Below, piece after piece: positions 4,426 through 41,388 of a stretch of DNA of 64,000 nt. The stretch is taken from NCBI GenBank assembly GCA_037431425.1, contig GCA_037431425.1_4129.1, one strand, 5' to 3'. Under the pieces are notes generated by a model. That model was not told the DNA's origin. It did no database searches and was given only the letters and a program-made list of their open reading frames with translations. The first letter of the stretch is position 1. Each line of letters opens with the position of its first letter. Both the position numbers and the translations under genes were made by a program. The stretch is from a phage.

Positions 4426-4765
4426 GTGCCACATTACGACGCTTGATTCGTTTCTGTGGTAAATTGCTTAAAGAAACTACAGGACCACATACGAAATTCA
4501 CCGATGGTGTATCAAATCTATGTGTATACGGTTCAAATTTCTCCATCTCTTCTTGAAAGAATAGACACACTGGAATGGTTCTATTACTTTGCCACCACCA
4601 ATCGTGTGCTATACCTAACAATTCGTCTTGCATTGACTCATTCATGTCATCGAAACAGTACATAGTAGTATACTGTTTACTTTTGATTTTGATGATACCA
4701 ATGAACGTTTTACCATCATACTGGATTACAGTAATAAATGGTGGAATAGTGTTATATTGATTCAT
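4412..4765 (-). CDS. Hypothetical protein, opposite strand
   Basis: 117-aa ORF exactly filling the gap between + strand genes ending 4425 and starting 4823; basic C-terminus. Confidence 0.45.
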   Translation of the reverse strand: MNQYNTIPPFITVIQYDGKTFIGIIKIKSKQYTTMYCFDDMNESMQDELLGIAHDWWWQSNRTIPVCLFFQEEMEKFEPYTHRFDTPSVNFVCGPVVSLSNLPQKRIKRRNVALKKK

Positions 4766-4822
4766 ATTAGTTCCATAAATATTAGTATAAATTTATACCT
4801 ATTATTTATGGAAGGAAAAACT

Positions 4823-5800: not shown

Positions 5801-5826
5801 GACAAAACCCGAAGTTGTGCTATAAT
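5798..5826 (+). promoter_or_regulatory. Sigma70-type promoter with extended -10 (TGcTATAAT)
   Basis: TATAAT at 5821-5826 preceded by TG at 5818-5819; -35-like tgagac 17 nt upstream; about 30 nt before primase start. Confidence 0.55.
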
Positions 5827-5855
5827 CATTTGTAAGAAAAGACAAGGATTAACTT

Positions 5856-6911
5856 ATGAACGCTGTACAAAACATAATGGCACAAATAATGAATGACCCA
5901 GTACCTGCAATTGGCACATGGACACATCACAACTGTCCCGCATGTGTGTTCAGAGGACATTCGAGGCCGGACATAAAGAACCGTGGTAATCATATGTTCA
6001 ATGCCGATGGTTCTGTTTCATATAACTGCTTTAACTGTAGTTTGAAAACTGGCTGGCAACCAGGAAAATATATGAGCAAAGATATGGAGTCTTTGCTCAT
6101 TTCTTTTGGTGCACAAGATAAAGAAATAGAATTAGTTAAGTTTTATATTAAAGAAATGGTTGATAGTGGTGAATATGCTACACAAGAAACCGTTGTAACA
6201 AAATTATATGACCGAATAACGGTACGTGATTTACCATCAAATGCTAAAACATTTTGGGATTGGGCTTCACTACCAGAAGATAAAATTCCGCAAGAATTTT
6301 TGAGTGTTTTACATCATGTAAATGAAAGAAATCCATATTTGTTGGATTTGGAATTATATTGGTCACCTAATAAAGAACATAAAATGTATGATAGATTTAT
6401 GATTCCTTATTACATGAATGGTAAAATAATTGGTTATACAGCGAGACATAAATTAAAAGATCCCGGAAGCACATACAGATTTATAAATCAGGTAAGTACT
6501 AATATATTGTATAATTATGATTTATTAAAAGATGACAGAATAAAAACGATTTTGGTATGTGAAGGACCGTTGGATGCAGCATTGATGGGTGGTGTATCTG
6601 CTAATAACTTTAAATTATCAAACTTGCAAATTGACGTATTAAAAGATGCCCAGAAAAAAGGGAAAAGGATAGTTATTGTTCCAGATAGAGACAAAGATGG
6701 ATTAATAACAATAGACCAAGCACTTGAAAATGGATTCAGTGTGTCTTTCCCTGATTTTGGAACAGTAAGAGAAGGTAGTACGATACGTCATATCAAAGAT
6801 TTTGAAGAGGCGTGTTCGCGATTTGGTAGGTTATTTTGCTTACAATTGATACATGATAGTATAGTAGATGAGCCATTTTATATTAAAGCTCAAACTGATA
6901 AATGGATGTAA
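5856..6911 (+). CDS. DNA primase, DnaG/T4 gp61-like (zinc-binding plus TOPRIM)
   Basis: CPAC...CFNC zinc motif near N-terminus; TOPRIM glutamate in ILVCEGPLDA and DxD in IVIVPDRDKDG. Confidence 0.8.
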   Translation: MNAVQNIMAQIMNDPVPAIGTWTHHNCPACVFRGHSRPDIKNRGNHMFNADGSVSYNCFNCSLKTGWQPGKYMSKDMESLLISFGAQDKEIELVKFYIKEMVDSGEYATQETVVTKLYDRITVRDLPSNAKTFWDWASLPEDKIPQEFLSVLHHVNERNPYLLDLELYWSPNKEHKMYDRFMIPYYMNGKIIGYTARHKLKDPGSTYRFINQVSTNILYNYDLLKDDRIKTILVCEGPLDAALMGGVSANNFKLSNLQIDVLKDAQKKGKRIVIVPDRDKDGLITIDQALENGFSVSFPDFGTVREGSTIRHIKDFEEACSRFGRLFCLQLIHDSIVDEPFYIKAQTDKWM

Positions 6912-6933
6912 TACATATAATGAGGGAACATAG

Positions 6934-8454
6934 ATGATTCAAAGCACAGTGGATGTGAAACAATATGGGATTAATGCACAACAATACTTATTATCTCAGA
7001 TTTTCAGTAATCCTGATTTGTATGTACGTTGTAAAAATATCCTTAAACCTGAATATTTTGATAAAACGTTTCATGAAAGTATTCAATTCGTACATGATTA
7101 CGCCGCAAAATATAGTTCTTCACCAACGTTGAAAGATATTGAAGTTAAAGGTGGTTATCAATACGATCATTATGAAGTACAAGAATTACATAAACAATCA
7201 GTGCTTGATACATGTGGTGAGTTTTGTCGCCATAAAGCATTGGCATTGGCAGTTGAAAAAGGAATGGAACTTGTTCATCAGAAAAAATATGGTGGAATCG
7301 AAGAGTTAATCCGAGAAGCGATGTTGGTAACTGTACAGAATGAGTTAGGTTTGGATATTTTTGAAAATCCAGAAGATACCATTCGCTCACTAAGTTCAAT
7401 GCAAGGGTCATTTAAAAGCGGATGGGAAACTCTTGATTATAAACTTTTCGGTGGTTTTGGGCGTAGAGAGTTAGAGATCTTTGCTGCTGCATCAGGTGGT
7501 GGTAAATCAGTAGTGCTACAAAATTTAGCAGTAAACTTTGCTAAAGCTGGTATGAATGGTGCATACATCTCACTAGAACTAGCTGAAGAGTTGGTTGCAG
7601 TTCGTATCTATGGTATGATGACAGAATCGAAACTCAGTAATGTAAAAAATGAAGCTGAAAAGATTGGATTTGCCGTTAAGGTAGAAGGTAAAAACAGTGG
7701 CATCTTGCGTATTAAACGTTTACCTGAATCTGTAACAACAACAGATGATATCGAAAGTTATTTGCGTGAATTACAAATTAAGTTGGAAATAAAACTTGAT
7801 TATGTATGCGTGGACTATTTGGATCTATTAACTTCTAACCGTCTTGGCCCAAATGATAAATCCAACACATTTACAAAAGACAAATTTGTATCAGAAGAAT
7901 TACGTGCTCTTGCGTCCAAAATGGATCTAACAGTTTTCACTGCATCACAGTTTAACCGTAGTGGGATGGATGAAGATAAGAAAAGTCAAAGTCAGATTGC
8001 TGGTGGTATTTCTAAAATTTATACTGCGGATAACGTAATTTATATTGAAGCAAAAAAAGACACTGGTGAATTATGGTTTGATTTCCAAAAAACACGTAAC
8101 AGTAGTGCTGTTGGTTCACGTTTGCGTATGTCATATGATATTGATTCATTGCGTGTTCTTGATCATGCAACTACAGTACAACAAATGGAAACTGAAGGTA
8201 ATGGTTTTCGACACAGTGGACTCTCTAAGATTGGTGGGGGTAATATGGTGTTACCACCTAGTACAATGCAAACATTGCGTCATACGCTCTCTGGTGCTGT
8301 CAAAACACCATCTACACAACCAAACAATCAGATAACACTAAATACTGATAGTGCTCCTAACACCGCAACACAAAATGATTCACTGTCACCGCCACAACAC
8401 GCGGCTTCTGACCGTGTTCATGCGATGAAGCAATGGTTAAATCAAAGGAAATGA
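6934..8454 (+). CDS. Replicative DNA helicase, DnaB/T4 gp41-like
   Basis: Walker A AAASGGGKSV, DnaB-type SQFNRS motif; low-complexity C-terminal extension. Confidence 0.8.
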   Translation: MIQSTVDVKQYGINAQQYLLSQIFSNPDLYVRCKNILKPEYFDKTFHESIQFVHDYAAKYSSSPTLKDIEVKGGYQYDHYEVQELHKQSVLDTCGEFCRHKALALAVEKGMELVHQKKYGGIEELIREAMLVTVQNELGLDIFENPEDTIRSLSSMQGSFKSGWETLDYKLFGGFGRRELEIFAAASGGGKSVVLQNLAVNFAKAGMNGAYISLELAEELVAVRIYGMMTESKLSNVKNEAEKIGFAVKVEGKNSGILRIKRLPESVTTTDDIESYLRELQIKLEIKLDYVCVDYLDLLTSNRLGPNDKSNTFTKDKFVSEELRALASKMDLTVFTASQFNRSGMDEDKKSQSQIAGGISKIYTADNVIYIEAKKDTGELWFDFQKTRNSSAVGSRLRMSYDIDSLRVLDHATTVQQMETEGNGFRHSGLSKIGGGNMVLPPSTMQTLRHTLSGAVKTPSTQPNNQITLNTDSAPNTATQNDSLSPPQHAASDRVHAMKQWLNQRK

Positions 8455-10504: not shown

Positions 10505-11175
10505 ATTACGAATATGATCAACAATCCGTTAATCAGATGGCAGATTTATTAAGTGGTCTTAATGATATTGAAGCTGGTGAAACACATAATGCAGCAGGTG
10601 TTCCCTATAAAGCAAGTGGTGATATTGGTGCAATGACTGCAATTTTAACTTCATTAAATGAAGCTGGAATGGATTACGGTACTGATCCAGAGAAGATTCA
10701 TCCGAACGTTGTACCATACAATGCACCATTCAATGAACACATGAATGGACAACAATCTACCATTCAGCCATATAGTCAACCATCTAAGCCGAAAACTAAT
10801 TGGAGCTTAGTAGAAGAAAAAGTTCAAGGAACTAAATCTACCAAAGTGTATAGTATCAAGTGTAATCATAGTTCACAGATTATTATGAATAATATTATGA
10901 TGTATGAAGCTGCACTTACATTAGTTAATCTTTTGAATGAAGGGCGAATGTTGACAGATGCAAAACTCCTTGGTATAATTAGTTCTGGATTACAATACAC
11001 AAATGTAATTAGTGAGGCATTAAAAGCTGCTCAAAGGCGACAACGTGTTCTTAATGAATCAAAGTATGACGAAGCAAAAGAATTAGATATAATCATTGCA
11101 GAAAAGAAAGCAGAAGCTTATAAATTGAAAGAGCGTGTACTGAACTTTCTTAAAAATGAAGGGTATATTACCTGA
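10501..11175 (+). CDS. Hypothetical protein
   Basis: 224-aa ORF, ATGA overlap with upstream gene. Confidence 0.5.
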   Translation: MNYEYDQQSVNQMADLLSGLNDIEAGETHNAAGVPYKASGDIGAMTAILTSLNEAGMDYGTDPEKIHPNVVPYNAPFNEHMNGQQSTIQPYSQPSKPKTNWSLVEEKVQGTKSTKVYSIKCNHSSQIIMNNIMMYEAALTLVNLLNEGRMLTDAKLLGIISSGLQYTNVISEALKAAQRRQRVLNESKYDEAKELDIIIAEKKAEAYKLKERVLNFLKNEGYIT

Positions 11176-18232: not shown

Positions 18233-20159
18233 ATGTCAGTTTTTAAAATTAATGAGAAATCTCACCTAGAAAAAAATATGTTTTTTGATGAAAGTGTTGA
18301 CATTCAACGATTTGAAAGTGTGAAATATTCAGCACTAGAGAAACTAACTGAACAACAGAAAAGTTTCTTCTGGACCCCTGGTGAAGTTGATGTATCCAAG
18401 GATAAAATTGATTTTGCCAACCTTAATGATTCAGAGAAGCACATTTTTACCTCTAACTTGAAACGTCAAATTCTTCTTGATTCTGTACAAGGTCGTGGTC
18501 CAAACCTAATGCTACTACCATATGCATCACTACCTGAATTAGAGAACTTTATTGAGACATGGGCATTCTTTGAAGGTGCTATTCATAGTAAATCATATAC
18601 TCATATTATTCGTAACATTTACCCTAATCCATCTGAAGTGTTTGATACTATGTTGGACATTCCAGAAATCACAGATTGTGCGGCTGATGTGTCTAAGTAT
18701 TACGATGAACTGGATGAGCTAGGTACATGGTATAAAGTACTGGGTGAAGGAACTCACAATGTCAATGGTAAAACTATTGTTGTTGATATGTACGAACTTA
18801 AAAAGAAAATGTGGTTGTGTCTGAATAGTATTAACATCCTTGAGGGTGTGCGTTTTTACGCTAGTTTTGCCTGTTCGTGGGCCTACGCCGAAAACAAGCT
18901 TATGGAAGGTAATGCCAAAATTATTCGTCTAATTTGCCGTTAACTCCATGGCGGCTTTGTACAGTAATGTACATTGAAAAACCTTATATATCGGTGAACA
19001 TCTTAACATGTAATGATGAAGACAATACCGAGATTTAGATAAATAACCCCCATAAATGAGATGAAAATATACATTTGGGGATAGTTATGTGTGATAATAT
19101 TTTTTACGTCTATGTTTGGTATAACCCAATTGACCAGATGCCATTTTATGTTGGTAAAGGTAAGGGGAATCGAGCGTATGATGTACCTGAACATTCTAGA
19201 AATACATATTTTATTCTAAAGTATAATAAAATATTAGAACTTGGAATGGAGCCATATGTTATAATTGAAAAAATTCACTTAGTTAAGACAACGCACTATC
19301 ATATGAATTAGAACTGATTTGAAGTATGGAAAGAACTATATGAAAAATATAAAGATTCCATTCCTAATATCAAAAATTCAGGTTTGAACAAGTATAAGTT
19401 GTCATTTGAAGATAAATTGGATATCATTGATGCTATTCATAATCGTGGTGAAACACAACTAAAGGAAATTGCACTACGATATGGATTGAAGGAGACTATG
19501 ATAGTGTCTATAAATCTTAAACGACAATGGAAAACTATATGGGAATATTATCTATCTAAATCCTAACGACTATCGAAACCACGTAGAAATGCGGAAGGGA
19601 GTAGAGTACTCTCAAGTGAGAGGAAACGTAAGGAATCCAGAAACTGGATTATGATATAGTCTGAACTACTATAGAAATATAGTGCAGTACTTCTAGCTGC
19701 CGAAGTACGGGGGAAGCTTAACGAACTTCCTTGAACATAATGGATGAAAATTTACACTTAGCAGCAACACAAATGATTCTCCGACTACTCAAGAAAGAAG
19801 ATCTAGACTTTGCAAAAATCGCAGAAGAGTGCTATGATGAAGTACTGGAAATGTTTATGTCTGCTATTCGCCAAGAAGAAGCTTGGGCAGATTTCCTCTT
19901 TAAAGATGGTTCTATTATTGGATTGAACTCTGAAATTCTTAAACAGTATGTTCGCTGGATTGGATCTAAGCGTATGACGGCACTTGGTATCAAATGTCCA
20001 TATACTGTATCCAAGAGTAACCCACTACCGTGGACTGAACACTGGGTAAGTGGTAGTTCTGTACAGGTAGCACCACAAGAAACTGAAATCAGTTCTTATA
20101 TCATTGGTGGTATTGTGAATGATATTCAAGAAGATACATTCACACCATTCAAACTATAA
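18233..20159 (+). CDS. nrdB: Ribonucleotide reductase small subunit, interrupted by a group I intron (exons 18233-18940 and 19743-20159)
   Basis: Exon 1 ends ...NAKIIRLICR then TAA; the ORF at 19731 continues DENLHLAATQ...EISSYIIG...FTPFKL, a typical NrdB C-terminus; joined product about 375 aa. Confidence 0.85.
18941..19742 (+). mobile_element. Group I self-splicing intron in nrdB
   Basis: Exon 1 ends in U (18940); gcggc at 18951-18955 can pair with exon gccgu as P1; GACUA (19568-19572) and gauauaguc (19653-19661) resemble P7 strands; intron ends in G (19742); carries a GIY-YIG ORF. Confidence 0.75.
19087..19311 (+). CDS. GIY-YIG homing endonuclease catalytic domain, intron-encoded (possibly truncated)
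   Basis: IFYVYVWYNPIDQMPFYVGKGKGNRAYD matches GIY...YIG...R; ORF stops after about 75 aa; ORF 19384-19566 in another frame may be its displaced C-terminal part. Confidence 0.6.
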   Translation: MCDNIFYVYVWYNPIDQMPFYVGKGKGNRAYDVPEHSRNTYFILKYNKILELGMEPYVIIEKIHLVKTTHYHMN

Positions 20160-26955: not shown

Positions 26956-28018
<1,063 letters not shown>

Positions 28019-28036
28019 AATATAAACTTAAAAAAA

Positions 28037-28089
28037 CTCCAAGATTAGATATATGATAAATATCTAAAATAAATCTTGGAGTTTTTTTT
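28037..28089 (+). terminator. Long hairpin terminator
   Basis: ctccaagatt / aatcttggag outer stem with inner agatat/atatct pairing, then T8; A tract upstream suggests bidirectional capacity. Confidence 0.7.
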
Positions 28090-28102
28090 ATTATAAAGGG
28101 GT

Positions 28103-31128
<3,026 letters not shown>

Positions 31129-31129
<1 letters not shown>

Positions 31130-31920
31130 TGCCTAGTAAAAGCAAAAGTCAAGCCAAATTCTTTGCTATCGCAGCACATGATCCAGAATTTGCAAAGAAA
31201 GCGGGAATTTCACAAAGTACTGCTAAAGAATGGAATGCCGCAGATGAAAAGGAAGGAAATCTTAAAAAAAGTTCTAAACTTCCTAATAAGGTAAAAGAAT
31301 CAAGTATGCGTGGTTTGGTAGATATAGTAAAAGATGCAGAACTTGCTGATGATACAAAAGAAGAACCATGTGATATAATTGATGAATCTGATGATATTGA
31401 AAAGTTGGAAGAAATGCCACAACGATTTGATAGTTTTCAAGGTCAAGACCGAGATGAGTTTGTCGATAAAACTGCCAAACTAACTGGTAAACATAACATG
31501 GTTAAGTTCGCAGAACATAAAGACTATGATGTGTATATTAATAAAAACGGTTCTGGATTTATCGCTTATGATAAGTCTGGTAAACAGCTTGCAGTCGTTA
31601 GTGGTCATTTATCTAATGATGCAGTTCTTGGTGTACAAAATGTATTTGAGATTGCAGCCACTGCATCTAAAACTGGCACTAAAGGTATCATCTATAACAT
31701 CTTTATGGATATGGTTGCCCATGGCATTAAAGTGCTAAGCGATAGTTTACACACAGATGATGCAATTAAATTCTGGACGCGATTGATTGGCTCACATCAA
31801 GTTTATGTTGTTGGTGGTGGAGAAGTTCTTTCAAAGGCGAGTCCAGATAAGATTCATAAGTACTGGAGTGATGATGAGTCAAGTCCAAGTGCTGAACTTC
31901 AACTTATGTTAGTGAAATAA
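31129..31920 (+). CDS. Hypothetical protein
   Basis: 263-aa ORF, TAATG overlap with upstream gene, terminator downstream. Confidence 0.5.
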
Positions 31921-31923
31921 TAC

Positions 31924-31951
31924 ATCGGGGCATATTGTCCCGATATTTTTT
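31924..31951 (+). terminator. Rho-independent terminator
   Basis: atcggggc / gtcccgat stem (one G-U pair), then T6. Confidence 0.6.
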
Positions 31952-32013
31952 GAGACAAAAATCACATTGGTGATACAATGTTTTGTGACAAAGAGACATG
32001 ATAAGGAATTCAA

Positions 32014-33978
32014 ATGGCTAAGAAAGAAAGTGCTGTCCTACAGGAACATGATGTTCAACGACTAAACGATTATCAACATGCTCGTTTACGTACTGAGATG
32101 TATCTCGGTTCTCGTTCAGTACATGAAAGTCAAGTACTGATTTTTGGTGAATCAGGATATGAAGTTAAGAATGTAGAATGGGTTCCTGCAATTCTTACTG
32201 CTACGCGTGAAATTATTGATAATAGCTTGGATGAATTTAAAAAAGCTGGAACTAAAGAACCTGTTTTGAAAGTTGATTTCAATGAAGAAGAACTATCATT
32301 TGAGATTAGTGATAATGGTCGTGGTATTCCAATTGATTATGTTCCAGAGTATCAAAAAAACCTATGTACAATGGTAATGACTGAAACAAAAACTGGTCGT
32401 AACTTTGACGATTCCAAACGTGATGAAACTATTGGTCAGAATGGTTTGGGTGGTTCAGTTGCGATGATTGTTAGTTCTAAGGCAGAATTGGAAATTCATC
32501 GTCAAGGTCGTCCATATAAAACACAAAGCAGTAATGATGGTTATGATGGGTTTTATAAGTTCAATCAGAAGTTCGAAGAAGGAACTATTATGTTCCCTGA
32601 ACTTCATGTACATGAACCTACAATTAGAAAGGTACAAACCGATAAAACTGGTACAACAATTCGTTTTACATTGAGTAAAGAAGTTTTTCCAAATAGAAAA
32701 TTACCTACTGAATTACTTTACAGTATTCTTAAAGAAATGGCAGCCGCTAATCCGACTTATAAAATATTTTTGAATGGTAAACGTATTGTCATTAAAGGTA
32801 ATACAGAGAAAGCATTGTTCAATGCATCGAAATTAATGCAGTTGCATGTTAAAGATGATTCATTCAATTTTAACAGTACTTTTTATATTGTTCCTAATGC
32901 AGTATCTAACATGAACACTAACTTTCATATGCATGGGTTGGTTAACAATGCACCTGCGTTTGATGGTGGTACACATCTTGACACATTTAAAAAATTCTTT
33001 TCTTTGGGTGTAGGAGCAGCTCTAGAGAAAGAATCCAAGAAACGTAGAATGAAACCAAACCGTTCTGACATTGAAGAAGGATTGTTGATTTATAACGTCA
33101 CGACGATGAAAGCACCTTCGTTCAATTCACAGATTAAATCTAAACTAACAAATGAAAATGTAATTCGTCCTATTCAACAAGCAATGAGTTCTGAGTGGTT
33201 TGATGAATTGGTTAAGAAGAATAAAGAGTGGGTTGATGAAATTTTTGAACGCTGTGCAGCCCGTACTAATAAGAAAGATGCTGAAGAAGATCGCCGATTA
33301 GCTAAAAAGCTTCTAAAAGGAAAGGTTGCAAAATTACTTGATAGTACTGGTACTGATCGTTCACAGTGTATTTTATTGATTGCAGAAGGTGACTCTGCTA
33401 TTTCCAACATGGCAAGTGCTCGTATACCAAGTATTCATGGGATTCTACCATTGCGTGGAAAGATTATGAACGTCAGTGGTTCTGAAAAGACTAAAGAATT
33501 AATGGATTCTATGGCATTGCATGACATAATGGCTAGTATCAATTTAGTTCCAGGAGTTAAAGCTGACCGAGCAGACCTGAACTACGGTAAGCTTTATATT
33601 TGTGCAGATGAAGATGAAGATGGTAAGAATATCGGAGCATTAGTATGTAACTTCCTGTTCAAATTCTGGCCTGAATTGTTCCAAGATCCAGAAAATCCAT
33701 TTGTGTACATATTCAAAACTCCATTTATCATTCTAGAGAAAGGTAAGGAAACAAAATACTACTATGGTCATGACGTACATGAATACAATCCTGACGATTG
33801 GAAAGGTTGGAAAGCAACTCGTGCAAAAGGGCTTGGTACGTTAGAAAAATCAAACTTCCGCGACGCATTCACACATAGTGTTGCAGTAGCAATCACTGAT
33901 GATGGACGTCTTGGTGAAACTCTTGATTTGATTTTCAACAAGAAACGTGCAGATGACCGCAAGAACTGGATGGAATAA
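32014..33978 (+). CDS. DNA topoisomerase II large subunit (GyrB-like ATPase plus TOPRIM; T4 gp39/gp60-like)
   Basis: EIIDNSLDE N-box, DNGRGIP, GLGGSVAM, TOPRIM LIAEGDSA and DEDEDG. Confidence 0.85.
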   Translation: MAKKESAVLQEHDVQRLNDYQHARLRTEMYLGSRSVHESQVLIFGESGYEVKNVEWVPAILTATREIIDNSLDEFKKAGTKEPVLKVDFNEEELSFEISDNGRGIPIDYVPEYQKNLCTMVMTETKTGRNFDDSKRDETIGQNGLGGSVAMIVSSKAELEIHRQGRPYKTQSSNDGYDGFYKFNQKFEEGTIMFPELHVHEPTIRKVQTDKTGTTIRFTLSKEVFPNRKLPTELLYSILKEMAAANPTYKIFLNGKRIVIKGNTEKALFNASKLMQLHVKDDSFNFNSTFYIVPNAVSNMNTNFHMHGLVNNAPAFDGGTHLDTFKKFFSLGVGAALEKESKKRRMKPNRSDIEEGLLIYNVTTMKAPSFNSQIKSKLTNENVIRPIQQAMSSEWFDELVKKNKEWVDEIFERCAARTNKKDAEEDRRLAKKLLKGKVAKLLDSTGTDRSQCILLIAEGDSAISNMASARIPSIHGILPLRGKIMNVSGSEKTKELMDSMALHDIMASINLVPGVKADRADLNYGKLYICADEDEDGKNIGALVCNFLFKFWPELFQDPENPFVYIFKTPFIILEKGKETKYYYGHDVHEYNPDDWKGWKATRAKGLGTLEKSNFRDAFTHSVAVAITDDGRLGETLDLIFNKKRADDRKNWME

Positions 33979-34028
33979 TATAGGCTAATGGGGGACATGG
34001 TGTTCCCCTTTTATAAAGAGACAATGGA

Positions 34029-35441
34029 ATGGCTAAAAGTAAAAAAACAGAAAATCATAATATCGATAACCAAACGCTAACTCTACTAGATTATAACAGT
34101 TCTGATTATGTGAATACCACATCATTAGAGTATTCAATGTACACACTAGATCGTGCAATTCCTGGCATTGACGGTCTAAAGAGTTCACAACGAAAAGCAA
34201 TTTTCACATTATCTAAAATCAGTGGTGAAATTAAAACAGTATCATGTGCTGGTAAAATGATCAGCGATGGCATCTATCTTCATGGTGACACATCTGCATC
34301 AGGAACACTTCAGAACTTAGCATCACCAGTAGCCAATAATTATCCACTAATAGGTAAACGTGGTGGATTTGGTACACAAGTAAACAGCACACCAGCATCT
34401 GCACGTTACACATATGTGAGGAAGAATAAGAGTACTGAGATGCTTGTTTTGCGTGATGTGGATATTATTCCAATGAAAGAGAACTATGACGGGACAACAT
34501 ACGAACCAGTTCATTTCTTGCCTATCATTCCATTATCATTGTTTGGTAATGATAGTATGTCAGTTGGTTATAAGAGCACAATTCTACCACATAAAATTGA
34601 AGATATTATTGATAATTGTATTCGTGCTATTGATAAAAAACCACTAAAAGAAATGACACCATACTATGTGTCATGTGGTGCAAGCGATGTAGTAACCAAG
34701 CTGGATGAAAACAAGTACGAGTTTTATGGTAAAGCACAAGTCATTGATGCAAGTACTGTTAAAGTTACAGGATTACCACCTAATTATGGTATTGAGAAGT
34801 TCATTGAAAAACTCATCAAGATGAGTGATGATGGGGAAATTCGTGATTATGACAATAACAGTACTGATGTAATTGATATTACAATTAAACTTCCACGTGG
34901 AACGTCAGCTAAATGGACAGAGATGGATGTTATTGAGTATTTTGGTATTAACAAAAAAATAACTCAGCATTTAACTGTTCTTGGGGAAAATGGTAAAGTA
35001 AAAGTTTACGATACTACTATGGACTTGATTAAAGACTTTGTGGATTTTCGTTTCAAATATTATATCAAGCGTTATGAAAAGAAACTTGATGATTGTGCCG
35101 CAGAGGTTCGTTATAAAATTCTAATTAAAGAATGTTTCGATAATGATATGATTGCTAAGGTAAAAGGATTTGCCAACCGTGCGGAGATGGTTGAATTCGT
35201 TAAATCATTAAATGTCGAAATTCAAGCAACTGAAGATAATATTCAAAGCATTGTAAACTTCCCTTCATATCGCTGGACACAAGATAATTATCAATCAGTT
35301 CTACAAGATATCCAGGACAATCTAGATTTGATGGATAAGTACAATGAATTACTATCTAACCATGATCTGATTTGGGATATTTATAAATACGAACTTAAAG
35401 AACTGAAAAAGATTGATTTCACACCTAAATCTGATAATTGA
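34029..35441 (+). CDS. DNA topoisomerase II medium subunit (GyrA-like cleavage core; T4 gp52-like)
   Basis: AIPGIDGLKSSQRK and SARYTYVRK (candidate catalytic Tyr region). Confidence 0.8.
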   Translation: MAKSKKTENHNIDNQTLTLLDYNSSDYVNTTSLEYSMYTLDRAIPGIDGLKSSQRKAIFTLSKISGEIKTVSCAGKMISDGIYLHGDTSASGTLQNLASPVANNYPLIGKRGGFGTQVNSTPASARYTYVRKNKSTEMLVLRDVDIIPMKENYDGTTYEPVHFLPIIPLSLFGNDSMSVGYKSTILPHKIEDIIDNCIRAIDKKPLKEMTPYYVSCGASDVVTKLDENKYEFYGKAQVIDASTVKVTGLPPNYGIEKFIEKLIKMSDDGEIRDYDNNSTDVIDITIKLPRGTSAKWTEMDVIEYFGINKKITQHLTVLGENGKVKVYDTTMDLIKDFVDFRFKYYIKRYEKKLDDCAAEVRYKILIKECFDNDMIAKVKGFANRAEMVEFVKSLNVEIQATEDNIQSIVNFPSYRWTQDNYQSVLQDIQDNLDLMDKYNELLSNHDLIWDIYKYELKELKKIDFTPKSDN

Positions 35442-35451
35442 TATATTAAAT

Positions 35452-35480
35452 GGAAGACCCATTGGGTCTTCCTTGTCCTT
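35452..35480 (+). terminator. Rho-independent terminator after topoisomerase genes
   Basis: ggaagaccc / gggtcttcc stem, att loop, T-rich tail. Confidence 0.65.
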
Positions 35481-35482
35481 TA

Positions 35483-35490
35483 TATAAATA
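35483..35490 (+). promoter_or_regulatory. T4-type late promoter motif (TATAAATA)
   Basis: Exact TATAAATA about 40 nt upstream of ATG 35529. Confidence 0.4.
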
Positions 35491-35528
35491 ATCAATAGAT
35501 AATGGTAGCTTGGCTATGGAGAATTACA

Positions 35529-37922
35529 ATGAGAACTTTTACCCCACGTTGGGATATAAAAGCCGATGCTCGATATATACAAGAAGGACAAGACATTCTT
35601 TTGCGTTTGAGTATCAACAAAAATAGCACAACGGATGCTAGTTATGTATTAAATGAAGATGAATACTTAGAGATGATTCTTACAATACAATGCTTGGATA
35701 GTTCAGGTACAGTATTTGAACCAGAATCGCATTATACTTTTTTTGTGGGTAATGATGAAAACAGTTTTATACCCATTTCTGAAGGAACTACTGGAAATAA
35801 ATTTGTAAATGGAAAACATAAATGTAAAATTAGTAAAACACAATTTAACTTATCAGGCAGTTCTAATAGTGAAGATGTATATTTTATAAAAATTCATTGT
35901 AAAAATGACGGGACATACAACAATACCGAAATTATCAATTTTTATTTACAGGCAGTAAATGTGATGTATTTTGGTAATATTTCACCGAGTGGTGAGTTGG
36001 GAACAACTGACGCATCAATAACATATGATAGTCAGGAAGTTTGGGTTACACCTGGTGTAGAGATTGGTGATGATAAAAAACCATACTGTATTGGAGATGT
36101 TGATTATGGTTCTAACAGTACATTATTTGTACAAGGATTTGGTAGAAGACGACCTTTTATATTAGGTACTGACATTACGGATGATATTACACCCCGCGTA
36201 TTTTTCCCAGCTTATAGATTGGTTGATATGGATATATCGGAAGTTCCGCAGAATCACATCACAAATGATTATGCCGTTTTTAAACCAGCCCAAACCGTAT
36301 GGCCTATTTCGGGTATAAACAAAGAAGTTAAAGTTAACATTCAAAACAAAAACGGAAGCACAATTGATACTGGAATGATTTTCAACCCAAATGGTCAATT
36401 ACTTCAAACATTTTTGTACGAATCTGAAGCATGTGACACATATTTTAAGGTTGAGATTGTAGACATTTTAAGTACTTATGTAGATGATAGTGAGAGATTT
36501 GCAATAAATCAACGTTACAAAGCATATCAAATGTGGGTATGCCCAGAAGACATAGACACTATATATTCAATCTCTGATAAACCATTACCAAATCATTTGT
36601 ACCAATTAAAAGATAATGTAGTTTATCCATATGTAATTACTGGTGAGTATGACGATGGTACACTTAAGCCGGTATATGATAGTAGTGATTGGCTAGATTT
36701 AGGTTATTACGATCCAACTCTTGGTGAAAATATCATTGGAATGCAAAAAATATTCAGGGTATTAGTTAATGCAGAAGAAGGGAATAACATAAACTTCATA
36801 ACTGAGAGTGACTTAGGAACCATTCATGTAGGGGAATACTTTGGGAATAGCGTCTATCCTAAGATAGAAACTGATAGTAAAAGTCAGGTTTCTTATATAT
36901 TAGATGGTGGTGATGATATTAGAAAATATGGAATGGACTTAACACCAGATGGTTATCTAGTAGGAACTGCATTTGCTAAAAGTATGGATTTTAGTGCTAA
37001 TGATGATATTAAACTTTCATTTTACGTTAAAGCATTCAGTTCTGACGGTGGTGAGGCAAAAAAATTATTTAATCTTAAAATCGTAAGAGGTTTTGGACAA
37101 AATTATTTAAGTGCACATGTTCTACCATCTGTTTCTTTTGAAAGAGATTGGTTTAAATGTATTAGTACTTCATCATTTACTAACCAATTATTTTTTCGTC
37201 AATCCGATGATAGATATGGTCTTCAAAAAGTACCAAAAATGCTATTGAAAGAAAATTTTCTAAGTCAAACGTACCCATACACTAATCTTTCTGATATTAA
37301 GAAAGTATTACGAAAGAGTATTGTTGATACAAATGGAACCACTATTCCGAATGGTAAATTTAAAATGGTAATGGGTAATTATAAATTGTTATCAGCACTT
37401 GACAATCAAGGAAATTTGCAATATGATTTATTGTACCGTGAAGTTTTACCTGAAGGTTCGTTGGTGTCAGTGTCCAAAAATCCACGTCAGTACACACAAA
37501 TTGACAACGGTCTACTGGGTGAACTGTTCGGCTTACGACAAAACATATTCAAAGCAATTGGTGAAGATACAACCAACTTGATCAAAGATCCTACAGATTT
37601 ACAAAACCGTGGTATGTATGTTGATGCTATACCTAGTGTTAGTGAAGAGATGCTTGATACTGTTCCTAGGTTTATGAATCACCCCTATATTGAAAATAAC
37701 CTACAGAAAAAATTCATGCCTATAATTCCAGTTGCATATTGTCTGCCAGGCAAAGGTGAAGCATTTTTCAACACTTTACTACAGAATAATGAACATGGTA
37801 CAATGGTCGGTCTAGAATTTGAAATTACATCGGTGGAGTTTGGGTATTTTTCACATGAATCAGATAATTATGTACCTGATACATTTGTAATTACATTACC
37901 AAACAATAACATAGGAGTTTAA
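35529..37922 (+). CDS. Large hypothetical protein (about 797 aa), possibly virion-associated
   Basis: ATG 35529 with TGGAG RBS; late-promoter-like motif upstream. Confidence 0.55.
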   Translation: MRTFTPRWDIKADARYIQEGQDILLRLSINKNSTTDASYVLNEDEYLEMILTIQCLDSSGTVFEPESHYTFFVGNDENSFIPISEGTTGNKFVNGKHKCKISKTQFNLSGSSNSEDVYFIKIHCKNDGTYNNTEIINFYLQAVNVMYFGNISPSGELGTTDASITYDSQEVWVTPGVEIGDDKKPYCIGDVDYGSNSTLFVQGFGRRRPFILGTDITDDITPRVFFPAYRLVDMDISEVPQNHITNDYAVFKPAQTVWPISGINKEVKVNIQNKNGSTIDTGMIFNPNGQLLQTFLYESEACDTYFKVEIVDILSTYVDDSERFAINQRYKAYQMWVCPEDIDTIYSISDKPLPNHLYQLKDNVVYPYVITGEYDDGTLKPVYDSSDWLDLGYYDPTLGENIIGMQKIFRVLVNAEEGNNINFITESDLGTIHVGEYFGNSVYPKIETDSKSQVSYILDGGDDIRKYGMDLTPDGYLVGTAFAKSMDFSANDDIKLSFYVKAFSSDGGEAKKLFNLKIVRGFGQNYLSAHVLPSVSFERDWFKCISTSSFTNQLFFRQSDDRYGLQKVPKMLLKENFLSQTYPYTNLSDIKKVLRKSIVDTNGTTIPNGKFKMVMGNYKLLSALDNQGNLQYDLLYREVLPEGSLVSVSKNPRQYTQIDNGLLGELFGLRQNIFKAIGEDTTNLIKDPTDLQNRGMYVDAIPSVSEEMLDTVPRFMNHPYIENNLQKKFMPIIPVAYCLPGKGEAFFNTLLQNNEHGTMVGLEFEITSVEFGYFSHESDNYVPDTFVITLPNNNIGV

Positions 37923-37923
37923 T

Positions 37924-38235
37924 ATGTTTAATCCATTTTTTGACCCGTCTGGGATGACGGATAAAGAATTACAGTTAAAAATCAACGAGCAATCATTACG
38001 TTTGACATCTGCACGTGCGGCTGGTATGAGTGATATGATTATTGGTAATATGCAAATGGTGTTAAATCAATGTTATGCTGAACTAGAACTTCGTCAGGGA
38101 CATAAAGAGAAAAATGTTTATGATGAAGAAGACCCGTGTATCTTCGACATGGACTCGTATCTAACTGACAACGAAGAGGCTCAGAAGAAGAAAAATGAAA
38201 GTACAAGGAAACAGATTTATAAGTCCCAATGGTGA
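37924..38235 (+). CDS. Hypothetical protein
   Basis: 103-aa ORF. Confidence 0.5.
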   Translation: MFNPFFDPSGMTDKELQLKINEQSLRLTSARAAGMSDMIIGNMQMVLNQCYAELELRQGHKEKNVYDEEDPCIFDMDSYLTDNEEAQKKKNESTRKQIYKSQW

Positions 38236-38713
38236 TGTGAAATGTAATCTTAATGCAGTTGTTTATGCAATCAACTGTGGTGCAGATATCCAGTACTTAC
38301 AATTACAGGAAATCGATGAACCTGAAAGGTTAAAATTCAATGATAACTGTAAAAAATTTGGTTTAGAGCAACGTATGCTGGATTATACCATTGAACATGA
38401 TAAAAATCATGAACTTTGGCGTTATGATCCAGTATATGATAATATAAATCTACGTGACTTTTTTTTACAAAAGTGTACCTCAGATGAAGCACGAACACGT
38501 GTTGAGTATGAGCTTGAATTATATGAATATTATAATATGACAAAACTATTAAGATGTATGATCTGGCTCGTTGATTACATGGAAGAACATGAAATCTTTT
38601 GGGGTCTAGGGCGTGGAAGCTCTGTTGCATCATATTGTTTATACTTGATTGGATTACATATGGTAGATTCATTGAAGTATGACCTTGATGTGAACGAATT
38701 TTTGAAATGGTAG
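38195..38713 (+). CDS. Hypothetical protein
   Basis: 172-aa ORF; start uncertain (overlaps upstream gene by 41 nt). Confidence 0.45.
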   Translation: MKVQGNRFISPNGDVKCNLNAVVYAINCGADIQYLQLQEIDEPERLKFNDNCKKFGLEQRMLDYTIEHDKNHELWRYDPVYDNINLRDFFLQKCTSDEARTRVEYELELYEYYNMTKLLRCMIWLVDYMEEHEIFWGLGRGSSVASYCLYLIGLHMVDSLKYDLDVNEFLKW

Positions 38714-38777: not shown

Positions 38778-39122
38778 ATGTCTAAACATACAACTTATCG
38801 TGGTACAACAATTGACATGGATATGCTCAAGTACCAAAATCAGCACCAAGTAGCATTGGGTAATGCAAATCTAAATGCACGTGGTGATAAAATTGGCTCA
38901 GGTGGAACAATTATCAAAACTCGTGAAGAGTTACTTCAAGAAAAAGAACGTGAAATGCAAATCCCTGATTATATTCCTGAACATCAACTTCATAGTACTG
39001 AACATAGTTCTGAAGAAGTATGGGATGATGAAAGCTTTGAAGTTATGCCCGAAGTAAAAGAAGTTGAGGTTTCTGAAGAAAAGAAAGCTCCACGTCGAGC
39101 AAGAACTAAAGAACAGGAGTGA
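38778..39122 (+). CDS. Hypothetical protein
   Basis: 114-aa ORF with AAAGGA RBS. Confidence 0.5.
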   Translation: MSKHTTYRGTTIDMDMLKYQNQHQVALGNANLNARGDKIGSGGTIIKTREELLQEKEREMQIPDYIPEHQLHSTEHSSEEVWDDESFEVMPEVKEVEVSEEKKAPRRARTKEQE

Positions 39123-39130
39123 TGTGTCAA

Positions 39131-39457
39131 ATGACTAATAAAGTAATGACTGCATGTAAAGGTAAAGTTCTAGTAACTGATCTGGAACATGGTGAACGTA
39201 AAACGGCAGGTGGAATCGTTTTAACGAACGATGACGGCAAAATCAGGGGTATTCGTTCTCGCTGGGCAAAAGTCTATTCGGTCGGTGAAGACATTACTGA
39301 TATTAAAGAAGGACAATGGATTTTAATCGACCACGGTCGATGGTCAAGAACTATTGAAGTTGATGGTATTGAATTGAACTTAGTTGATTACCCTGCTGCT
39401 GTTAGTTTAGTATCAGATGAAGATCCAAGAACAAAAATGCTAACCTTTGGACGTTAA
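39131..39457 (+). CDS. GroES-like co-chaperonin (T4 gp31 analogue)
   Basis: KGKVLVTDLEHGERKTAGGIVL...KVYSVGEDI parallels the GroES pattern; start chosen at ATG 39131 (AGGAG 11 nt upstream). Confidence 0.6.
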   Translation: MTNKVMTACKGKVLVTDLEHGERKTAGGIVLTNDDGKIRGIRSRWAKVYSVGEDITDIKEGQWILIDHGRWSRTIEVDGIELNLVDYPAAVSLVSDEDPRTKMLTFGR

Positions 39458-39515: not shown

Positions 39516-39785
39516 ATGATAACTGATGATGGTAAATTTAGTTTCAAAGATGTAACATTAGTGTCAAAGAATGGAAGATTCATGTTTGAGGATAGAAAAA
39601 ATACCAAATATGTATATGAAGTTTCACATGATATGTTTAAAGTTTTATTAGTTGCTTCAGCACAAGCTGAAAGAACTGGAATTAAAAATAAGGCAAATTC
39701 TTTTAATTTTTTATTAAATCAACTTGAGATGACAGAAGAACTTTTCACGGCTTTATTATATGATTCAGCCGATTGGATTCTATAA
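39516..39785 (+). CDS. Hypothetical protein
   Basis: 89-aa ORF. Confidence 0.45.
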   Translation: MITDDGKFSFKDVTLVSKNGRFMFEDRKNTKYVYEVSHDMFKVLLVASAQAERTGIKNKANSFNFLLNQLEMTEELFTALLYDSADWIL

Positions 39786-39808
39786 CACGTACACAGAAGG
39801 AAATACAC

Positions 39809-40762
39809 ATGACCACACTATGGACTGAAAAATATCGCCCACAAACAATGGAAGATTATGTATCAAAAAATGATGCTCTACGTCAGAAAATGGAAGAATG
39901 GATTAAAACTGGCGACATTCCACATATTGGTTTTTTTGGCCCAGCAGGAACTGGTAAAACATCTGCAATTAAAGTACTTATTAATGGTTTGGTTCAGAAC
40001 GGACACCTCGATCCAAGTGACGTAACCACACTTAATATGTCAGATGAAGGTATTGATGCTGTGCGTGATAAAATCGATGCCGCAGCAAAACTATCATGCT
40101 TTGGTCGATATCGTATTTTTGTTCTTGAAGAAATGGAACAAATGAACCATAAAGCACAAGGTAGCTTGAAGCGTGTTATGGAAGACTATCATGAAAATGC
40201 TCGCTTTATTTTAACAAGTAATGAACCACATAAAATTCAAAAACCTATTATCTCTCGCGTTCAAGTCATTACAATTGAAAAACATGACATGGAACAGTTC
40301 ATGACAAGAATTTATAATATCCTTCTCGCTGAAGGTGTTGATCTGAGTAGTGATGATAGTGTTGAACAAGTTCAAAAGTACATCAATGCTTCATATCCAG
40401 ATTTTCGTAAAACGCTAAACGTATTGCAAAGTTCAGTTGTTGATGGTAAACTAGTCAAACTTGAGGATAGTATTGAAAATTCTGCCGGATATCGCACTGC
40501 AATCATTGATGCGTTGAAGGCAGGAAATATCCGTCAAATGCGAGAGCAAATTGTTCAATCTATTCCTGATGATGAAATGGATGCATTTTTCTCGTACTTG
40601 TACCGAAATGCGGAAATGTTCAGTACTGACGAAATCACACTGATGAAGATTAAAGTTAAAATTCGTGATGCTGTTGTTAAGCAAGCAACTGTATCCGACC
40701 GTGAAATGAATCTTAGTGCATTGTTGTGTGAGATTGATCTAATTTGTTCGGGGAACATGTAA
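39809..40762 (+). CDS. Clamp-loader ATPase (RFC small subunit/T4 gp44-like)
   Basis: Begins MTTLWTEKYRP; Walker A GPAGTGKTS, Walker B VLEEME, sensor-1 LTSNE, SRV(Q) motif. Confidence 0.8.
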   Translation: MTTLWTEKYRPQTMEDYVSKNDALRQKMEEWIKTGDIPHIGFFGPAGTGKTSAIKVLINGLVQNGHLDPSDVTTLNMSDEGIDAVRDKIDAAAKLSCFGRYRIFVLEEMEQMNHKAQGSLKRVMEDYHENARFILTSNEPHKIQKPIISRVQVITIEKHDMEQFMTRIYNILLAEGVDLSSDDSVEQVQKYINASYPDFRKTLNVLQSSVVDGKLVKLEDSIENSAGYRTAIIDALKAGNIRQMREQIVQSIPDDEMDAFFSYLYRNAEMFSTDEITLMKIKVKIRDAVVKQATVSDREMNLSALLCEIDLICSGNM

Positions 40763-41388
40763 TGAAGCCACGTTGTATTGTTTTTGATTGTGACGAAGTT
40801 CTATTGGACCACATCGGTATGCTTTCAGAGTATGTTAAACAAACTTATAACATAACCCCATCAACACCATATCCAACAGAATATGACCTATCAGATTGGT
40901 TGGGTGTTCCTCAAACTGAAGTTAAAAAAATTCTTGAACGTTTCAATCAACAATCGTATTTGTTTGGATTGTTAAAACCTGTTGAACCAAATACTGTTGA
41001 TATTGTTCAAGAATTACGTGACCGTTTTTATAAAGAAAAGTTTGTGGTTCTGACAAAATGTGGTAAGAAAGGATATGGTGAAGTTTTGCGTAATGTGAAT
41101 CTCATGCGAGAATTTGGTGAAAATTGTTTTGATGAGATCATCATCATTGAAATGGATGAATCAAAGAAAAAGGCATTGGAGGATTTACAAGATAAGTACG
41201 ATGTGAAATTGATGATTGATGATTATATCAACAACATTGAAACAGCATTGGAGCTTGGTATTCCTTCAGTTATGATGGGATGCTCACATAATACTGCATA
41301 CAGGAACAGTAGTGATTTTGAATATATCGAGAACTGGACCGAGCTTAGACTGAAAATTTATTCAGTTCTGGGTAAATATTATAAATAA
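40762..41388 (+). CDS. HAD-superfamily phosphatase, likely 5'-deoxynucleotidase
   Basis: N-terminal FDCDEVL (DxDx[TV] motif); ATG overlaps clamp-loader stop (TAATG). Confidence 0.55.
   Translation: MKPRCIVFDCDEVLLDHIGMLSEYVKQTYNITPSTPYPTEYDLSDWLGVPQTEVKKILERFNQQSYLFGLLKPVEPNTVDIVQELRDRFYKEKFVVLTKCGKKGYGEVLRNVNLMREFGENCFDEIIIIEMDESKKKALEDLQDKYDVKLMIDDYINNIETALELGIPSVMMGCSHNTAYRNSSDFEYIENWTELRLKIYSVLGKYYK

Follow-up and report, generated by a model that had tools for sequence, protein, structure and literature searches.

Adjacent genes for a probable two-subunit, T-even-type topoisomerase II in an Asteriusvirus jumbo coliphage

Two adjacent genes in the analysed stretch of phage DNA (64,000 nucleotides of contig GCA_037431425.1_4129.1, hereafter the window) most probably encode a standard two-subunit topoisomerase II of the T-even type (type IIA), belonging to an Asteriusvirus jumbo coliphage; judged from sequence, this assignment has a probability of about 0.9. 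In agreement with the original prediction, a GyrB-like large subunit of 654 aa is followed by a GyrA-like medium subunit of 470 aa, both ORFs having exactly the predicted boundaries and a gap of 50 bp between them. The large subunit is likewise unsplit, with its ATPase and TOPRIM regions in one ORF, as confirmed by Pfam and PHROG 543. The features discussed below are listed in Table 1.

Table 1. Features of the topoisomerase unit and of the replication genes in the window
Feature	Position	Strand	Basis
DNA primase (T4 gp61-like)	5856..6911	+	PHROG 47, E 3.3e-31; = 121Q gp19
DnaB / T4 gp41-like replicative helicase, directly 3' of primase	6934..8454	+	PHROG 19, E 1.7e-69; Pfam DnaB_C; = 121Q gp20
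G+C-rich hairpin and T-run, terminator-like boundary after upstream virion-protein gene	31924..31944	+	terminator scan
Sigma-70-like promoter (putative), extended -10 (TTGAGA, 18 nt, TG-n-TACAAT), 5' of large-subunit gene	31950..31979	+	promoter scan
Topoisomerase II large subunit (GyrB / T6 gp39-like), unsplit, 654 aa	32014..33978	+	Pfam, PHROG 543, PDB sequence search
Intergenic hairpin and short T-run, between both subunit genes	33990..34008	+	terminator scan
Topoisomerase II medium subunit (GyrA N-terminal / T4 gp52-like), 470 aa	34029..35441	+	Pfam, PHROG 551, PDB sequence search
Strong hairpin at close of topoisomerase unit	35452..35472	+	terminator scan
TATAAATA, T4-type late-promoter motif, 12 nt 5' of virion gene 35502-37922; end of topoisomerase unit	35483..35490	+	motif search
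RFC / gp44-like clamp-loader ATPase	39773..40762	+	Pfam, PHROG 168
HAD-superfamily 5'-nucleotidase-like (NT5C-type) phosphatase	40762..41388	+	Pfam NT5C 26.8 bits (cutoff 24.8), PHROG 420

By nucleotide identity and collinearity, the phage can be assigned to the genus Asteriusvirus (121Q/PBECO4-like jumbo myoviruses). A nucleotide search returned 47 records covering at least 80% of the topoisomerase pair, which is 97.5% identical to that of Escherichia phage ph0011 and 90.6% identical to those of 121Q, PBECO4, and phAPEC6. As a whole, the 64-kb window has 98-99.8% identity with ph0011 and 82-91% with 121Q, and is collinear with each throughout apart from four insertions. In the Asteriusvirus relatives (121Q gp52/gp53, PBECO4, phAPEC6, and ph0011) both genes recur at unchanged length, and the window agrees exactly with these phages in the neighbours of the pair, its intergenic hairpins, and its promoter-like site; the neighbouring genes are also the same in the phage CBB. 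Nothing substantive distinguishes the pair from its counterparts in ph0011 and 121Q; relative to both phages, the window has an extra 0.93-kb homing-endonuclease insertion 3 kb upstream (28095-29022). The 27400-29700 region has no copy in the E. coli complete-genome collection, and therefore there is no such prophage in those genomes. Over the whole window, Rfam at its gathering threshold gave no match and ARAGORN no tRNA; thus no hidden RNA gene lies within or near the topoisomerase genes. Besides the intergenic hairpins, a repeat search of 31000-36500 yielded short pairs at chance level only.

Along its full length, the large subunit aligns with PHROG 543 (topoisomerase II large subunit; E 1.8e-185, profile positions 16-637 of 661), and four Pfam domains follow one another along its single chain: HATPase_c (residues 62-220, E 4.8e-09), DNA_gyraseB (303-427, 62.7 bits, the transducer), Toprim (454-549, 34.2 bits), and TOPRIM_C (PF16898, 567-654) at the C-terminus. 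Its best solved relative is T6 gp39 (8ylu_C, E 5e-45, 157.3 bits), and it shares 97.7% amino acid identity with 121Q gp52. The GHKL ATPase motifs comprise the N-box (E66-IIDN70-SLDE, also labelled EIIDNS66), D100-NGRGIP, and the ATP lid GQNGLGG (141-147); the ATPase domain has about 30 more residues than that of T4 (residues ~163-205 of the window enzyme). In the transducer, S372-Q-I-K375 aligns with the QTK loop of T4, Miller, and PP35, retaining the glutamine and the lysine, with isoleucine in place of threonine. The lysine of this loop contacts the gamma-phosphate of ATP. The TOPRIM motifs (E458-GDSA, PLRGK479, and D532-E-D534-E-D536-G) are intact, and the region equivalent to T4 gp60 (PHROG 7229) corresponds to residues 494-654 of the same continuous chain.

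The medium subunit is covered by Pfam DNA_topoisoIV at residues 42-456 (profile positions 1-431 of 432, E 1e-62) and matches PHROG 551 with an E-value of 5.9e-142. T6/T4 gp52 is its best solved relative (8ylu_A, E 2.6e-35), and the protein is 96.8% identical to its 121Q orthologue (gp53). The catalytic pair R126-Y127 is invariant in five phage lineages.

The pair would constitute one early or middle transcription unit, in which a promoter leads into the large-subunit gene, a hairpin separates this gene from that of the medium subunit, and a terminator hairpin stands at the end. The unit is apparently inserted among late virion-protein genes; the roles of the promoter and of the hairpins are read from their sequence and position. 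The candidate promoter has 10 of 12 matches plus the TG, and 121Q, ph0011, and CBB (TTGAAA / TATAAT) conserve both of its hexamers; promoter-like sites in the region show no overall enrichment (42 found vs 36 expected). The hairpin preceding it (-13 kcal/mol, z -3.85) is kept in 121Q despite changes on both arms, and its position is occupied in CBB by another hairpin. The hairpin between the subunit genes (-12.3 kcal/mol) is not significantly stabler than shuffled sequence (z only -1.66). It is kept in 121Q and ph0011, with a different hairpin without T-run at the same position in CBB, and might act in partial termination or RNA stability. The closing hairpin is strong (-15.7 kcal/mol, z -4.14), and CBB has a hairpin with a T-run at the same place. 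The late-promoter motif TATAAATA occurs only 5 times in the 64 kb (12.9 expected), and around the pair it precedes only the flanking virion gene. A 9-mer, AAAGAGACA, is common to the 5' leaders of both topoisomerase genes (31990 and 34015); as it is only marginally enriched (3 found vs 0.96 expected, with 5 of 100 shuffles reaching 3), it was treated as a curiosity.

The flanking ORFs 29540-31129, 31129-31920, and 35502-37922 (the last being PHROG 13911, virion structural protein) all match virion-protein PHROGs. Such placement would be explained if the medium subunit, and perhaps the whole topoisomerase, were itself a virion protein, packaged and delivered with the DNA. Mass spectrometry of purified phAPEC6 virions indeed detected the medium-subunit orthologue (gp159, 54.5 kDa), together with gp158, gp161, and gp162, the orthologues of the flanking ORFs (PMC7247149). 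Nevertheless, that detection amounts to two peptides (8.1% coverage) from one subunit of two, and neither subunit is listed as structural in 121Q. Moreover, the topoisomerase genes are bracketed by hairpins and preceded by a sigma-70-like site rather than by TATAAATA, whereas the neighbouring virion gene has a TATAAATA of its own. Packaging is thus considered unlikely. It is quite improbable, too, that the unit goes beyond a routine role in replication, with the enzyme or its A subunit alone being packaged and co-injected to manage DNA topology as the 350-kb genome enters the cell, and with the conserved intergenic hairpin and AAAGAGACA setting the subunit stoichiometry post-transcriptionally.

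As a T-even-type enzyme, the pair displays the hallmarks of type IIA topoisomerases: the GHKL ATPase, the QTK lysine of the transducer, the TOPRIM glutamate and DxDxD, and the winged-helix Arg-Tyr, tower, and C-gate. The 654-aa subunit would form the ATP-operated N-gate (GHKL ATPase and transducer) and the Mg2+-binding TOPRIM fold, and the 470-aa subunit would contribute the tower, the C-gate, and a winged-helix domain bearing the catalytic tyrosine Y127. Assembled as a presumed A2B2 heterotetramer, the enzyme is predicted to cut one duplex, pass a second one through the break in an ATP-driven manner, and reseal the first; it could thereby relax supercoils and unlink or unknot the replicating genome of about 350 kb. 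For the T-even enzymes (T6 gp39, T6/T4 gp52), relaxation activity and a heterotetramer are documented (PMC11461880), although the window enzyme is only about 28% identical to these characterised proteins. With T6/T2 gp39 and gp52 (PDB 8ylu) it shares the domain architecture, the catalytic motifs, the location of the ATPase and the complete TOPRIM in one chain, and a short A subunit lacking a wrapping domain.

GyrB-GyrA and ParE-ParC are likewise members of the type IIA superfamily, with the same division of labour between B and A subunits, and orthologues of the pair in ph0011, slurp01, SP27, and CBB are labelled 'DNA gyrase subunit B' or 'gyrA' in GenBank. E. coli GyrB also comes close behind T6 gp39 as a match to the large subunit (148.8 bits, E 1.8e-42, vs 157.3 bits). 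Nonetheless, a true DNA gyrase that negatively supercoils phage DNA is a very unlikely identity for the pair. Gyrase requires the C-terminal domain of GyrA for DNA wrapping. In the 470-aa A subunit, the chain ends 14 residues past DNA_topoisoIV, and a Pfam scan detected no second domain and no C-terminal beta-pinwheel or GyrA box. The same subunit scores far lower against bacterial GyrA/ParC (50-75 bits) than against T4 and eukaryotic topoisomerase II (101-125 bits), and the B subunit terminates in TOPRIM_C, a tail of the kind found in eukaryotic and T4 enzymes, unlike bacterial gyrase and topoisomerase IV. A gyrase identity was accordingly rejected for want of a detectable wrapping domain; as its A subunit lacks that domain, the enzyme is not expected to supercoil DNA negatively.

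T4 does spread these functions over separate genes, as had been pointed out in the original prediction, the three being 39, 60, and 52, but the division of its large subunit does not follow the boundary between the ATPase and TOPRIM regions. In the alignment the split maps between residues ~518 and 519 of the window protein, inside TOPRIM, where gp39/gp60 carries an insertion of ~70 aa; the window ORF is continuous, contains no mobile cassette, and shows a gap at 518/519 in place of the insertion. The T4 locus has the order 39, mobA, 60.1, 60, and gene 52 is not adjacent to it, ~7.5 kb of the circular map separating it from gene 39. The split is specific to T4 and stems from the insertion of the mobA cassette, T2 and T6 being unsplit, and T4 has the only three-subunit type IIA enzyme described (PMC11461880).

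The other replication genes also proved to be ordered as predicted, primase preceding helicase and the clamp loader being followed by the HAD phosphatase. The T4 order differs in both cases: its helicase gene (41) comes ahead of its primase gene (61), and gene 44 is followed by gene 62. The clamp-loader stop and the phosphatase start overlap (TAATG), and the clamp loader probably starts at the ATG at 39809, behind GAAGGA. In a PDB sequence search, its similarity to archaeal and eukaryotic RFC small subunits (E 1e-31) exceeds that to T4 gp44 (1.3e-19). Neither a sliding clamp nor a small clamp-loader subunit was found by Pfam and PHROGs in 10 neighbouring ORFs. An ORF labelled 'DNA polymerase' (3787-4425, 212 aa) was considered as a clamp and rejected, its AlphaFold model (pLDDT 92.9) matching the palm of PolIII-alpha rather than a clamp; this split minimal PolIII-alpha has already been described (Iyer et al. 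2021).

The content of this module is T4-like and its order is indeed rearranged relative to T4, yet the arrangement is not peculiar to the window. The synteny comparison found close relatives of identical order already published, the very outcome that the original prediction had named as its refutation: all the genes in question, including the HAD phosphatase beside the clamp loader, follow the same order in 121Q, ph0011, and the more distant Pectobacterium phage CBB. An unsplit large subunit (630-657 aa) followed immediately on the same strand by a medium subunit (428-468 aa) occurs as well in Miller (Pseudotevenvirus), PP35 (Limestonevirus), and CBB (Mimasvirus), to which the window proteins are 25-29% (Miller and PP35) and 68-72% (CBB) identical; in Miller and PP35, unlike in the window, no intergenic hairpin separates the two genes, which abut or overlap. 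A gp52-like gene is present in roughly 2,150 phage records. In each of 69 diverse viral contigs sampled from IMG/VR in which the two topoisomerase genes share a strand, the large-subunit gene lies upstream; 45 of the contigs have gaps of no more than 100 bp and 54 have gaps of no more than 300 bp, while in one the ORFs are fused. An unsplit large subunit was seen in 54 of 54. Adjacency combined with an unsplit large subunit is therefore the majority state among the phages sampled, and the unsplit, adjacent B-then-A pair is probably the ancestral phage state. Despite the differences from T4, to read the T4-like replication module as newly rearranged in this lineage alone is almost certainly wrong, and this reading was rejected on the synteny comparisons, given the order shared by 121Q, ph0011, and CBB, the B-then-A adjacency with unsplit B in Citrobacter phage Miller (Straboviridae) and Dickeya phage PP35 (Ackermannviridae), the upstream large subunit and mostly short gap in the 69 contigs, a two-subunit jumbo-phage topoisomerase already in the literature (PMC7824862), and the absence of gp62, gp45, and gp59 already reported for Rak2-like phages (PMC5259590).

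The arrangement is thus already known: the window is ordinary and T4 is the oddity. Since a homing-endonuclease cassette split the large-subunit gene of T4, a difference from T4 should not be read as unusual. The genome would carry the usual self-sufficient DNA-topology toolkit of large lytic phages, which matters little as a discovery. The process that split the T4 gene appears to be at work elsewhere in the window, where nrdB contains a group I intron (splicing expected across 18940/19743) that is absent from the closest relatives, a cytosine methyltransferase has an intein at its catalytic cysteine, excision of which would shorten the protein from 626 to 286 aa, and two homing-endonuclease genes are freestanding. 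These mobile elements are of greater biological interest than the topoisomerase pair.

The topoisomerase II genes at 32014-35441 match 56 GenBank phage records (megablast), all of them jumbo myoviruses of the 121Q/PBECO4/RaK2 kind. Escherichia phage ph0011 is the top match (97.5% identity at 100% query coverage), followed by about 20 Asteriusvirus genomes at 90.6%, including 121Q, PBECO4, phAPEC6, SP27, and slurp01. By blastn, the whole window runs collinear with the stretches retrieved from ph0011 and 121Q, except for four insertions; outside these, ph0011 matches it at 98-99.8% and 121Q at 82-91% identity.

The original prediction had the coordinates and lengths of both topoisomerase ORFs exactly right, and the large subunit is unsplit as it proposed: HATPase_c, DNA_gyraseB (transducer), Toprim, and TOPRIM_C all lie in one 654-aa chain. 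This product covers positions 16-637 of 661 in the profile of PHROG 543 ("topoisomerase II large subunit"), and its residues 494-654 match PHROG 7229, the family representing T4's separate small subunit. The medium (A) subunit matches DNA_topoisoIV profile positions 1-431 of 432, and no further domain was found in its 470 residues. Both subunits were aligned with those of 121Q, the distant Pectobacterium phage CBB (68-72% identical to the window's proteins), Citrobacter phage Miller, Dickeya phage PP35, and T4. All catalytic elements are present. The large subunit has EIIDNS66, DNGRGIP100, and GQNGLGG141 as N-box and G-boxes of the ATPase, Q373/K375 in the transducer, and E458 and D532/D534/D536 in TOPRIM; the A subunit has R126-Y127. 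Among solved structures, the T6 enzyme (gp39, E 5e-45; gp52, E 2.6e-35) and that of T4 come closest.

Going by its T6 and T4 homologues, the enzyme would be a heterotetramer of two large and two medium subunits, in which ATP would close the N-gate, TOPRIM with Mg2+ and Y127 would cleave the gate duplex, and a second duplex would go through the break and exit via the C-gate. The A subunit terminates 14 residues past the core domain, and no beta-pinwheel wrapping domain was detected in it. Judged by the established gyrase mechanism, an enzyme with no detected wrapping domain should relax and decatenate DNA without supercoiling it; because no supercoiling is expected, the "gyrase" labels in databases are probably misnomers.

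The order of genes around the pair in 121Q is IF3, ClpS-like, KTSC, two virion proteins, the large and the medium topoisomerase subunits, a virion protein, a small ORF, a PolIII-alpha fragment, more small ORFs, the clamp loader, and the phosphatase, while primase gp19 lies immediately 5' of helicase gp20. Both arrangements are identical to those of the window, and the order is unchanged in ph0011 and in the much more distant CBB. As had been noticed from the sequence, primase precedes helicase and a HAD phosphatase follows the clamp loader. The primase gene lies directly before that of the gp41-like helicase, and the start of the phosphatase (HAD/NT5C-type) and the stop of the clamp loader overlap. 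The view of a rearranged T4-like module is partly borne out. The window's gene order is not that of T4, but it is the layout usual in its lineage and in most phages. An unsplit large subunit with the medium subunit next downstream also occurs in Miller (T4-like, Straboviridae), and in PP35 (Ackermannviridae) the medium subunit follows directly after an unsplit large one.

A survey of 80 IMG/VR viral loci that encode a medium-subunit relative (mostly 27-37% identity; best tblastn hits, hence a diverse but not a random sample) gives the same picture. In 69 loci both genes fall within the retrieved flank and share a strand, and the large-subunit gene is upstream in all 69. Up to 100 bp separate the ORFs in 45 of these, 101-300 bp in nine, 301-1000 bp in ten, and more than 1 kb in four; in the remaining one the genes are fused. 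The large-subunit match runs from ATPase to TOPRIM in one stretch of less than 2.1 kb at every testable locus (54/54). The adjacent, unsplit arrangement is thus not unusual, and it is already known. The fused locus (UViG_3300033512_000107, 4123-7344) encodes both subunits as a single 1073-aa ORF, like eukaryotic topoisomerase II.

Features of the window (putative regulatory elements included)
Feature	Position	Details
PolIII-alpha half	3787-4425	212 aa
Primase	5856-6911	
gp41-like helicase	6934-8454	
Insertion (a)	11169-12896	ORF 11175-12923, 582-aa freestanding homing endonuclease; PHROG 3339, DUF7487
nrdB	18233-20159	
Insertion (b)	18941-19742	802 nt, group I intron inside nrdB
GIY-YIG-like ORF fragments	19075-19311, 19384-19566	decayed, inside the intron
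IF3 homologue	26956-27459	
ClpS-like protein	27473-28018	
Insertion (c)	28095-29022	0.93 kb; ORF 28245-29033, 262-aa freestanding homing endonuclease; PHROG 559/9084
Hairpin + T-run	31924-31944	after upstream virion gene; z -3.85
Sigma-70-like promoter, extended -10	31950-31979	hexamers kept in CBB
AAAGAGACA	31990-31998	5' leader of large-subunit gene
Topoisomerase II large subunit	32014-33978 (+)	654 aa
Intergenic hairpin, weak	33990-34008	z -1.66; conserved in 121Q
AAAGAGACA	34015-34023	5' leader of medium-subunit gene
Topoisomerase II medium (A) subunit	34029-35441 (+)	470 aa
Strong hairpin	35452-35472	z -4.14
TATAAATA	35483-35490	12 nt before ATG of virion-protein gene 35502
PolIII-alpha half	38195-38713	172 aa
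GroES-like protein	39119-39457	
Clamp-loader ATPase	39773-40762	start probably ATG at 39809
HAD/NT5C-type phosphatase	40762-41388	
TATAAATA	41380-41387	~100 nt before virion-protein gene at 41488
C5-cytosine DNA methyltransferase	56453-58333	626 aa
Insertion (d), intein	56684-57703	340 residues; Hint_2 + LAGLIDADG_3

The topoisomerase pair resembles a single transcription unit of the early or middle class, in which we infer all regulatory roles. CBB has a different hairpin at the place of the intergenic one. The T4-type late-promoter motif TATAAATA, depleted in the window (5 copies vs 12.9 expected), has one of its copies directly past the last hairpin. This promoter layout speaks against late co-expression of the topoisomerase genes with their neighbors, and packaging of the enzyme in the virion appears unlikely. 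The virion proteome of phAPEC6 does include the orthologous medium subunit alongside products of the genes flanking topoisomerase (PMC7247149), but two peptides with 8.1% coverage are thin support. Each topoisomerase gene has the 9-mer AAAGAGACA in its leader; in all, the window contains three copies vs 0.96 expected, a number reached by 5 of 100 shuffles. The CBB counterparts are AAGAAACA and AAAGAGGCA, and the 9-mer may be a Shine-Dalgarno-like sequence only.

Both halves of a split minimal PolIII-alpha are also encoded in the window, 34 kb apart. In the 212-aa half, D16/D18/D20 and K80/D82 are invariant, and its AlphaFold model (pLDDT 92.9) matches 4iqj, 2hpi, and 7pu7 at their PolIII-alpha palm; the 172-aa half matches Pfam DNA_pol3_alpha at profile positions 16-95. 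The split enzyme, recovered here independently as a structure-based prediction, is already known from the description by Iyer et al. 2021 (PMC7824862). The sequence of the clamp-loader ATPase is nearer to archaeal/eukaryotic RFC small subunits (E ~1e-31) than to T4 gp44 (1.3e-19). Pfam and PHROGs searches of the neighboring ORFs detected neither a gp62-like nor a gp45/PCNA-like gene, in agreement with the Rak2-like phages of Buttimer et al. 2017 (PMC5259590), which have homologues of gp43, gp44, gp41, gp61, and gp32 and in which gp62, gp45, and gp59 are not detectable. The window also encodes host-like translation and proteostasis proteins (IF3, ClpS-like, and GroES-like), named from the annotation of 121Q/ph0011 homologues and the Pfam matches recorded for called genes.

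All four insertions relative to 121Q (blastn) are intron, intein, or homing endonuclease elements. The 582-aa endonuclease, inserted between homologues of 121Q gp26 and gp27, shows a weak MTES_1575 restriction-endonuclease-like match; it is common to ph0011 and UE-S1 and is kin to homing endonucleases of RaK2 and K64-1. Removal of the nrdB insert yields a NrdB identical to that of ph0011 (374/374); U closes the 5' exon and G closes the insert, whose 3' part (19501-19684) matches Rfam Intron_gpI below the gathering score (E 8.9e-07, 34.5 bits). This intron is absent from near-identical ph0011 and from 121Q (blastn); its closest relative, in which a 245-aa ORF is intact, interrupts nrdB of Yersinia phage fHe-Yen9-04 at the same position. 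The third insertion, between the ClpS-like and KTSC genes, is likewise absent from ph0011 and 121Q, with flanks 98-99% identical to ph0011 (blastn), and has no close DNA match in the GenBank phage collection (best: 24% coverage, ~67% identity). Its exact 262-aa protein occurs on five public contigs, one a 350-kb metagenome contig, and shows weak DUF723 and DUF2726 matches; it may be truncated, since it spans only profile positions 163-413 of 607. The intein accounts for the difference between the window's methyltransferase and the 286-aa protein of 121Q. It separates P77 from the catalytic Cys of the PCQ motif, has the ends CFPAGT...VVHN/C, and matches both its domains above Pfam cutoffs. It is common to ph0011 and UE-S1, and phages A4, JNE01, and TH47 have a diverged version. 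It goes unmentioned in the UE-S1 paper, and a literature search combining intein, cytosine methyltransferase, phage, and LAGLIDADG returned one general review only.

T4, as predicted, spreads the topoisomerase functions over separate genes (39, 60, and 52). Gene 39 is followed by a mobA remnant, 60.1, and gene 60 with its 50-nt translational bypass, and gene 52 sits beyond the rII genes. The split does not separate ATPase from TOPRIM, contrary to what the original prediction implied: in the alignment gp39 ends and gp60 starts inside TOPRIM, between window residues ~518 and 519. T4 also has ~70 extra residues, aligned to a gap in every other phage compared; Xin et al. (PMC11461880) hold the mobA element responsible for the insertion in T4. 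[quoted passage not shown] 2021 (PMC7824862). According to the listing of Buttimer et al. 2017 (PMC5259590), the large subunit has "no counterpart" in T4. The alignment and the PDB search show this listing to be wrong, and the T4 counterpart of the large subunit constitutes an annotation correction rather than a discovery. T4, and not the phage of the window, is the exception.
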